Source of the DNA: Shigella phage Sf19
Reading direction: 5' to 3' (one strand)
DNA: 64,000 nucleotides
Sequence record: MF327005
A program made the position numbers and the translations under genes. The notes under the pieces are model-generated. The model did no database searches. It saw only the letters and a program-made list of their open reading frames with translations, and was not told the DNA's origin. Shown here piece after piece: positions 46,911 to 48,560 of this stretch (position 1 is the first letter of the stretch; each line of letters opens with the position of its first letter).

Positions 46911-47143
46911 TTTATAAGGCTACTGCCATCCTTCCGCACCCGACCTGACCTCGCCCAACCTTACCTGACTGAACCACACCCGACCAAACATCACTTAAAA
47001 ACCCTTTTCAAAGACTCTTAAGTGATGTAATCGAATTTTTATGTAGCTCCGATTAACTACCCATACCTAACCCCACCTTGCCACACCGAACCAGACCAAA
47101 CCCAGCCTCATTAAAAGACCCTTTTAAAGACCTTTTAAAAAGG
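46911..47143. repeat. mosaic repeat element copy 1 (C/A-rich tracts + conserved hairpin modules)
   Basis: Shares modules with 48286-48560 (ggctact(g/a)ccatcc; catcacttaaaa..ttaagtgatg; cctcattaaaagaccc..ttttaaaaagg; TTTT(T/A)ATGTAGCT loop hairpin) in different order. Confidence 0.7.
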
Positions 47144-47165
47144 AGCCTCCGAAGAGGCTACCTAG
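47144..47165 (-). terminator. hairpin terminator for minus-strand gene 47171-47611
   Basis: agcctc-cgaa-gaggct with A-run on plus strand. Confidence 0.55.
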
Positions 47166-47170
47166 TCAAC

Positions 47171-47611
47171 TTAGAAAGGTTTTCTACGTTGCTTGTTAAT
47201 GTTAGCTTTCATGGCAGCTAAATGGTTTTGCTGTTCAATCAGTCGTGAACGTTCTTGATGACTAAGTGCCATAGTGTTCACATTCTCAATCGCTTGAGTG
47301 GCTTGTTTTAAAGCACGACCAATCTTACTAGACATTTTACGTTTTGCAATAGTTGCTTGATGTTTAGGTTCCACCACACGATAACCAACACCCATTGAAG
47401 TGACCAGATAAATCTTCTCTTCTTTAAGAAGCTTCTCAATAAACTTCTCAAGTCGATTTAGGCGTGTAAGTGCGTAAGCTTTCATTTCATCTTCGTACTT
47501 AACAATGTCACCTTGATAAGTCGGCTTCACAATACCTAAGAAGGTGTCCATCTCAGAGTGTGATACAGTATCACCGTAACTGAACTTTGCTGCTAATGCT
47601 TTTGTATTCAT
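47171..47611 (-). CDS. hypothetical protein (cassette gene 2)
   Basis: 146 aa ORF flanked by mosaic repeats. Confidence 0.5.
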   Translation of the reverse strand: MNTKALAAKFSYGDTVSHSEMDTFLGIVKPTYQGDIVKYEDEMKAYALTRLNRLEKFIEKLLKEEKIYLVTSMGVGYRVVEPKHQATIAKRKMSSKIGRALKQATQAIENVNTMALSHQERSRLIEQQNHLAAMKANINKQRRKPF

Positions 47612-47613
47612 AA

Positions 47614-48216
47614 TTAAACATTACCTTCTGAAATAACTTCTACAGAAAAACGACCAAAGCGTGGACGCCAATCACCTACACCACAAAGGTTGCCAGCATT
47701 TTCCAGAACCATCAAGAGTTCTTCTTTGGTAATTTGTTCTTCATCGAACATCAAACCAAACTCTACAGACCAGTCACGGAAGATTGGACGGTAGCTCATA
47801 ACTCGTGCTGTGCCAATCTTAACAGACTTCGCATAGATAAAGTCTTGGTTCTTAGCTAGTTCTTGTGGGTTTGCTGGACAGTTCTTAATAGTCATTGGGA
47901 AGACTACATCTGTCAGCATAATGGCTCGGTCAATTACCTTACCAAGTTTGTTGAGTTTTGCACCAGACTTGATACAAGCCTCAATCATCTCACCGTTCAT
48001 AACAAAACCTAGTTGCTCGTCGTAGTAACAAGAGGTTACCAGTTGACTCTCTGCTAAGAGAGCGTAGTCTTCGTCAGTCTTTTTACGTTTACTAGACAGA
48101 GACTTGTGATACTTTGTCAGAGGATTTAATGGGTCTGACAGAGTATCAGCATGGCTCAGGAAAGGACGAGTGCCAGTGATTTTGATATTTAACAGTTTCA
48201 TAGCATTTAGCTCCAC
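47614..48216 (-). CDS. hypothetical protein (cassette gene 1)
   Basis: 200 aa ORF; GTGGAG RBS-like. Confidence 0.5.
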
Positions 48217-48285
48217 ACTTTAGTTGATTGTTAAGTTGTTTGTAAAGAACCCTCAACAGAAGACTCTTTAGAAACTTGGTAGATT

Positions 48286-48560
48286 TTTAACGTGGCTACT
48301 ACCATCCACCCTTACCTCACTTTACCTAACCTGACCTTACCAGACCCAACCGGACACTACCCTACCTAGCGAAACCTCATTAAAAGACCCTCTTTAAAGA
48401 CCTTTTAAAAAGGTGAGTCTCATTTTAATGTAGCTGAGACTAACTACCCTCACCAAACCGGACCAGACCCAACCCAGCCATACCAGACCATACCACACCC
48501 AACCGAACCGAACCTTACCGAGCATCACTTAAAACCCTTTTCAAAGACTCTTAAGTGATG
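48286..48560. repeat. mosaic repeat element copy 2
   Basis: Same modules as copy 1, shuffled; lies in 5' leader of minus-strand transcript. Confidence 0.7.

Follow-up and report, generated by a model that had tools for sequence, protein, structure and literature searches.

The window considered here, a 64,000-nucleotide stretch of DNA from Shigella phage Sf19 (sequence record MF327005), belongs to an Ounavirinae phage which, across the region of interest, is 99.7-99.8% identical to Shigella phages Sf17 and Sf18 (Mooglevirus Sf17). The region holds a two-gene cassette bracketed by repeats, and the genes surrounding it are all on the minus strand, as are the features described below. The first gene of the cassette, vipr (47614..48201; 195 aa), starts at the ATG at 48201 and not at the GTG at 48216; the second, vap1, occupies 47171..47611 (146 aa). 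Transcription of the upstream guide array and the cassette is presumably driven by promoter P1 (48591..48618; TTGACA-N16-TATACT), which a consensus scan matches at 11 of 12 positions and which is kept in all unit-carrying relatives; a minus-strand promoter had been proposed in the first-pass annotation of this DNA, and its place is 48618-48591. The cassette ends in an intrinsic terminator (AGCCUCUUCGGAGGCU followed by a U-run, 47144..47159; terminator scan) that is kept in all cassette-bearing relatives. A second promoter found by the consensus scan, P2 (46882-46854; TTGACA-N17-TATTTT), drives the next operon and marks the boundary of the locus. The -35 hexamer of P2 is enclosed by a 19-bp inverted repeat at 46855-46901 (89% complementary; the P2 feature as a whole spans 46854..46901), which could serve as an operator or, folded as a terminator-like hairpin, close the guide array. 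No plus-strand promoter was found in a promoter scan of the region, and an Rfam search of the DNA returned tRNAs only, with no family for the repeat units.

The repeats had been taken for two mosaic copies with shuffled modules, one on either side of the cassette. The shared modules are all where they were said to be: GGCTACT(G/A)CCATCC at 46918 and 48294, the (NNACC)n tracts, a hairpin CATCACTTAA...TTAAGTGATG at 46989/47018 and 48523/48551, a block CCTCATTAAAAGACCC at 47106 and 48375, and TTTT(T/A)ATGTAGCT at 47036 and 48423, with a conserved loop and compensatory changes in its stem. It is the copy number that needs revision. Alignment resolves four homologous units of 58-67% pairwise identity, two in tandem in each of the former copies: U1 (46900-47030), U2 (47027-47143), U3 (48276-48413) and U4 (48414-48562). 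Each unit is 117-149 nt long with an internal period of 5 nt and consists, 5' to 3' on the minus strand, of a ~40-nt hairpin, 9-14 GGYNN pentamers and a 36-nt 3' tail capable of forming a pseudoknot. Two hairpin variants (H1 and H2) and four tail variants are combined differently in each of the four units, and this is what gives the appearance of shuffled modules. H1 (CAUCACUUAAG...CUUAAGUGAUG) stands 5' of U4 (48520..48562), where the inverted repeat AGCAUCACUUAAG...CUUAAGUGAUGCU makes a ~19-bp stem that dominates the centroid RNA fold, and 5' of U1 (46986..47030; an inverted repeat with 11/11 complementary positions, also seen in the RNA fold). H2 (CCUUUUUAAAAGG...CUUUUAAUGAGG), which is homologous to H1, is predicted by RNA folding 5' of U3 (48377..48413) and 5' of U2 (47108..47143).

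The pentamer tract and tail of each unit together make up what is identified below as the gene of a guide RNA (vrRNA). That of U4 (48414..48519) has 14 perfect GGYNN repeats (48450-48519) and a tail at 48414-48449; that of U3 (48276..48376) has 13 repeats, ten of them with perfect GGY and three imperfect (CGC, UGU, AGU), at 48312-48376 and a tail at 48276-48311. On the far side of the cassette, the vrRNA gene of U2 (47027..47107) comprises nine perfect repeats (47063-47107) with a tail at 47027-47062, and that of U1 (46900..46985) ten repeats, nine of them perfect (46936-46985), with a tail at 46900-46935. On the minus strand GGY recurs at period 5 in an unbroken chain of up to 14, the longest chain being 4 both in 200 shuffles of the window and in 500 shuffles of the units, and there are no further GGY tracts of this kind elsewhere in the 64-kb window. 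Over the 28 units of eight loci that carry vipr, those of the window and of seven relatives, the logo of the repeat has G at 0.84, G at 0.99 and Y at 1.00, and its last two positions are nearly uniform; among the 39 units of all phage loci parsed, 38 NN strings are distinct. (From phage to phage, unit heads and tails are conserved, and the tracts retain their 5-nt period only.) The tail is an H-type pseudoknot supported by covariation: among 13 distinct tails, pairing holds in 95.7% of cells and both partners vary in 8 of 9 pairs, with slid controls at 31-44%. Helix 1 pairs as AAGG/CCUU, GUGG/CCAC or GUAG/CUAC, and helix 2 as GGCAG/CUGCC, GGUAG/CUACC, AGUCUCA/UGAGACU or UAAUCG/CGAUUA.

Vipr is identical at 193 of 195 residues (99%) to the Vipr of Escherichia phage SUSP1, and it has a minimal RAMP fold (RRM core, G-loop and thumb) with the RNA-contact residues; neither a TRAP nor a ToxN fold is seen in it. 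A search found 519 homologues, mostly of ~190 aa, and Vipr occurs in 129 phage records (117 from Ounavirinae). Vap1 shares 143 of its 146 residues (98%) with the product of the neighbouring SUSP1 gene. Its homologue search yielded 3 sequences only, and its structural model is of moderate quality (pLDDT 74.5), with fold matches to generic helical bundles that give no confirmation of the DNA-binding fold predicted for it. Pfam, NCBIfam and PADLOC models match neither protein, and in PHROGs both fall in unknown-function families only (phrog_5926 for Vap1). Outside the close relatives, the first cassette protein of Pseudomonas phage Medea1 is 43% identical to Vipr, and its two-gene cassette is followed directly by a GGY tract of 12 repeats (L027 3574-3633; L numbers are the loci parsed in this analysis). 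By a strict criterion there is no clear GGY tract within 2.5 kb of the Vipr homologue (31% identity) of Listonella phage phiHSIC.

These features have a recently described counterpart. VIPR (Viral Interference Programmable Repeat) systems, as set out in a 2026 bioRxiv preprint (10.64898/2026.04.26.720920), consist of Vipr, a RAMP-like protein of ~20 kDa, the accessory protein Vap and ~100-nt vrRNAs made of 9-16 YNNGG repeats and a 3' pseudoknot tail. GGY is conserved in the vrRNA and NN is hypervariable; under the "1-nt skip rule", NN pairs with duplex DNA of the form NNxNNx, and transcription of the target is repressed (10.64898/2026.04.26.720920). The model locus there is that of SUSP1. In the SUSP1 clade, whose set comprises 41 vrRNAs, most guides target an E. 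coli satellite phage, and the SUSP1 vrRNAs are discrete RNAs that co-purify with Vipr and silence targets, the evidence being small-RNA sequencing, pull-down, GFP and phage assays (10.64898/2026.04.26.720920). A companion preprint (10.64898/2026.04.26.720927) places one Vipr protomer on each GGYNN pentamer, in a helical filament that buries GGY and presents NN, and names the contact residues that hold G1, G2 and Y3; both preprints report that Vap1 enhances silencing in SUSP1 (10.64898/2026.04.26.720920, 10.64898/2026.04.26.720927).

Judged from its sequence, the Sf19 locus is very probably a type II VIPR system of the SUSP1 clade (we put the probability at about 0.93). The repeat numbers found here (9, 10, 13 and 14) agree with the 9-16 of the published vrRNAs. 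Every contact residue that the companion preprint names (H17, E71, M72, R138, C173, D177, W178 and R179) is present in the Vipr of this phage, and two of them, R138 and R179, do not vary among 36 homologues. Parsing the SUSP1 locus (L010) in the same way gives three units, the cassette and one unit, in agreement with the reported "one upstream, three downstream". The two loci are alike in their pair of genes, their location, with the ligase gene on one side and the next operon on the other, the design of their vrRNAs, their flanking arrays and their predicted E. coli satellite targets. They differ in layout, the guides being two on either side of the cassette here but one upstream and three downstream in SUSP1; in that all four NN strings here differ from the parsed SUSP1 guides; and in that SUSP1 is a Suspvirus whereas the phage considered here is a Mooglevirus. 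The system as such is already known, having been described for the near-identical SUSP1 locus, and the present locus adds no new principle.

The conserved vrRNA sequence also matches 144 E. coli chromosomes, and these matches led to ~11-kb islands that carry serine recombinase, tape-measure, baseplate and HNH genes and are integrated at wrbA, tonB or yecN. (Islands of this family occur in 567 of 5426 E. coli genomes.) Targets of the guides were sought on nine of these satellite islands, allowing 0-3 skipped bases and using shuffled guides as controls; only the 1-nt skip gave matches above the shuffled-guide controls. Under that rule the four guides match satellite islands at 86-100% of their NN positions. 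Guide U4 matches a small satellite CDS at 24/28 NN, with the skipped bases at the wobble position, and U3 matches at 23/26 NN a site ~90 nt upstream of a satellite HTH gene. The match of U2 (17/18 NN) is in the serine recombinase gene of wrbA-site islands (L012 11743-11768 / L011 29082-29107), and that of U1 (20/20 NN) in the recombinase gene of a tonB-site island. The skipped base of the U2 target is at codon position 1, that of the other coding targets at the wobble position. Shuffled guides reach at most 20/28, 19/26, 15/18 and 16/20 for U4, U3, U2 and U1, respectively, and the chance expectation of the four target matches is 3e-7 to 2.5e-4. The same rule extends to the eight Vipr-bearing loci, where 21 of 28 guides match at 80% or more with a skip of 1, against 1 of 28 with a skip of 2. 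No self-target was found within the window at skip 1. The satellites examined are those of E. coli, and the phage records closest to the window name Shigella hosts.

The satellite islands carry guides of their own. Each has one intact vrRNA gene with GGY repeats and pseudoknot tail (L011 20034-20103, L012 2625-2679, L017 2749-2813 and L019 2696-2760), and none of the ~11-kb islands has a homologue of Vipr or Vap. One satellite guide matches other satellites at 19/22; no match was found between satellite guides and the phage window.

How the locus might work can be sketched with SUSP1 as the model for expression, RNA ends and RNP formation. The P1 transcript would cover two guide genes followed by vipr and vap1, and U4 and U3 would be cut out of it; U2 and U1, which stand behind a good intrinsic terminator, would be made by read-through or from promoters that the present map does not include. 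The hairpins may have a part in this. One of ~40 nt stands ahead of every guide in the phage arrays, while the single guide genes of satellites have none, and the published RNA size agrees with tract and tail alone (81-106 nt here). The inter-unit hairpins are probably processing or insulating elements that are removed from the mature RNA. (We found no discussion of them in the accessible text of the VIPR preprint; the record of phage ASO1B annotates these hairpins as terminators.) The four guides would be aimed at two types of integrase, a small ORF and sequence ahead of an HTH gene in ~11-kb E. coli satellites, and with guides so directed the locus would therefore serve competition between phage and satellite.

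Two other functions had been considered for the repeats. The first is that of a leader regulatory RNA, acting in cis, whose G/U-rich repeats and hairpins would act on the cassette mRNA at the level of translation, stability or termination. The first-pass annotation had correctly recognized the elements as acting in the form of minus-strand RNA with GGU-type repeats, and as functionally tied to the two-gene cassette; its placement of them in 5' leaders holds for U4 and U3, which do lie between P1 and the vipr start codon. U2 and U1, however, are downstream of the cassette terminator, and units are found in cassette-less phages and in E. coli satellites that have neither Vipr nor Vap. A cis-acting leader also leaves aside the hypervariability of NN next to a fixed GGY, the match of the NN strings to foreign DNA under a specific gapped rule, and the discrete RNAs which, according to 10.64898/2026.04.26.720920, co-purify with Vipr. 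Leader regulation thus has very little to recommend it as the function of the repeats.

The second proposed function, that of recombination sites which exist to move the cassette in and out of genomes, is best weighed against the distribution of the units. Unit-like sequence is confined to Felix O1-like phages (230 records) and always lies between the DNA ligase gene and an ORF87-like gene. There are no units in 3HA14 (Mooglevirus Sf17, the same species as the window) or in Michonne (the same genus). Vipr is present in 129 records as against 230 with units, so that many relatives keep guides without the effector. Among cassette-less phages, Felix O1 has one unit (L003 1600-1730) and UAB_Phi87 two (L005 1600-1860); fKMPT1, NRG857CP1 and MBP4696116 are further two-unit phages without Vipr, and L020-L024 are further orphan loci. 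Cassette-bearing relatives (wV8, ASO1B, tootiki, SPJ41, LF110P4 and phiSUSP1) carry one to three units on the P2 side and one or two on the P1 side. (The wV8 record labels a 58-bp "DR_4" repeat, and the genome papers of Felix O1 and wV8 contain no discussion of these repeats.)

The orphan arrays of Vipr-less phages are the upstream array of their Vipr-bearing relatives: the units of MBP4696116 and NRG857CP1, for example, equal those of SPJ41 at L008 3954 and 4091. This identity fits a deletion that ran from one copy of a tail to another copy of it and took out the cassette and the downstream array. The variable number of units (from none to two in cassette-less phages, and differing on either side of the cassette where it is present) and the nature of the orphan arrays, just what a tail-tail deletion should leave behind, are points in favour of mobility. 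On the other hand, there is no recombinase in or beside the cassette, and its position between the ligase and ORF87-like genes is constant in every relative examined. A recombination substrate has no need of a GGY period, pseudoknot covariation or target complementarity, and loss by homologous recombination follows from the presence of repeats without being what they are for. The units are better read as genes of trans-acting vrRNAs for Vipr, and that the repeats are there for the sake of mobility is scarcely credible. Comparison of the relatives is consistent with repeat recombination as a side effect, accounting only for loss of the cassette in relatives; to that extent, and not as a statement of what the repeats are for, the earlier proposal stands.

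In the complete genome of MBP4696116 there is no homologue of Vipr or Vap, and its two units (record positions ~51000-51300; L025/L026) have guides that match satellites at 34/36 and 23/24. Overall, 6 of 11 orphan guides tested match satellite targets at 86-96% of NN positions. Their GGY integrity is lower, 0.69 vs 0.83 (Fisher p = 0.001, for a sample that is small and non-independent). One may speculate that guide genes outlive their effector, or work in its absence by using the Vipr of a co-infecting phage in trans (as those of the satellites presumably do), and that the inter-unit hairpins are a dedicated processing signal; we consider this combination of ideas rather unlikely. Guide-only arrays acting in trans were not found in the accessible text of the VIPR preprint.

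A DNA-level or generic G-rich RNA feature (an R-loop or G-quadruplex origin, a plus-strand Rho rut site, or a sponge for a host RNA-binding protein) would suit the pronounced G/C strand asymmetry seen here behind a promoter and near replication genes, but its probability is close to nil: the element is dispensable (absent from 3HA14 and Michonne), the promoter scan gave nothing on the plus strand, the NN code fits satellite sequences, and the pyrimidine at position 3, which models based on G-quadruplexes or skew do not require, is as conserved as GG. On these same four grounds the R-loop/G-quadruplex origin and plus-strand rut were rejected together with a cluster of primase sites, BREX GGTAAG decoys, a tRNA CCA-end sponge, RfaH ops-like sites, TRAP-like attenuation and a ToxI-like antitoxin.

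Comparison with other RNA-protein systems sets off what is particular to VIPR. Class 1 CRISPR-Cas effectors also form filaments (of Cas7, Csm3 or Cmr4 on crRNA), whereas the Sf19 locus has no nuclease partner, no CRISPR repeat-spacer array and no cas1/cas2, and gives no PADLOC match. The step here is 5 nt with two informative bases, read against a 3-nt step in the target; the guides are individual genes with a 3' pseudoknot instead of repeat-derived handles; and the system is encoded by a virulent phage. Orphan CRISPR mini-arrays offer a parallel to the guides that E. coli satellites and Vipr-less phages carry without an effector gene, the difference being that the guides here are vrRNAs. As with TRAP on (G/U)AG repeats, a protein reads a short motif at fixed spacing along RNA, and as in ToxIN, a tandemly repeated non-coding RNA lies beside a small protein gene. 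In contrast to both, Vipr has a RAMP fold, not that of TRAP or ToxN; the units (~120-150 nt, with internal 5-nt repeats) are unlike the ~36-nt antitoxin repeats of ToxIN; and, different from TRAP and ToxI, the variable positions encode DNA targets.

As a mode of RNA-guided DNA reading, VIPR is of recent description; it uses a gapped code on a minimal RAMP protein, and a proposal exists that CRISPR effectors descend from it. The value of the present locus is that of independent replication on another phage, covering the RAMP fold, the GGY/NN logo, covariation of the pseudoknot, the 1-nt skip and the satellite targets, and it supplies four concrete target predictions for phages of the Sf17/Sf18 type. 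The locus is highly polymorphic (0-5 guides, with or without the cassette) across Felix O1-like phages that are used in therapy and typing. A VIPR locus can, moreover, be recognized as unusual from raw sequence by a reader working without tools.

Three further features of the window lie elsewhere. A perfect tandem duplication of 337 bp at 22448-23121 (2.0 copies, 100% identical) spans two small plus-strand ORFs, 22515-22790 and 22852-23184, and could be either a recent duplication or an artefact of assembly. A segment at 795-2130 has many tandem repeats of 10-12 nt (for example TGTTAAGAGA and CTTGTTAGAGA) and almost no long ORFs. Finally, 23 tRNA genes are clustered on the plus strand at 13036-18484.
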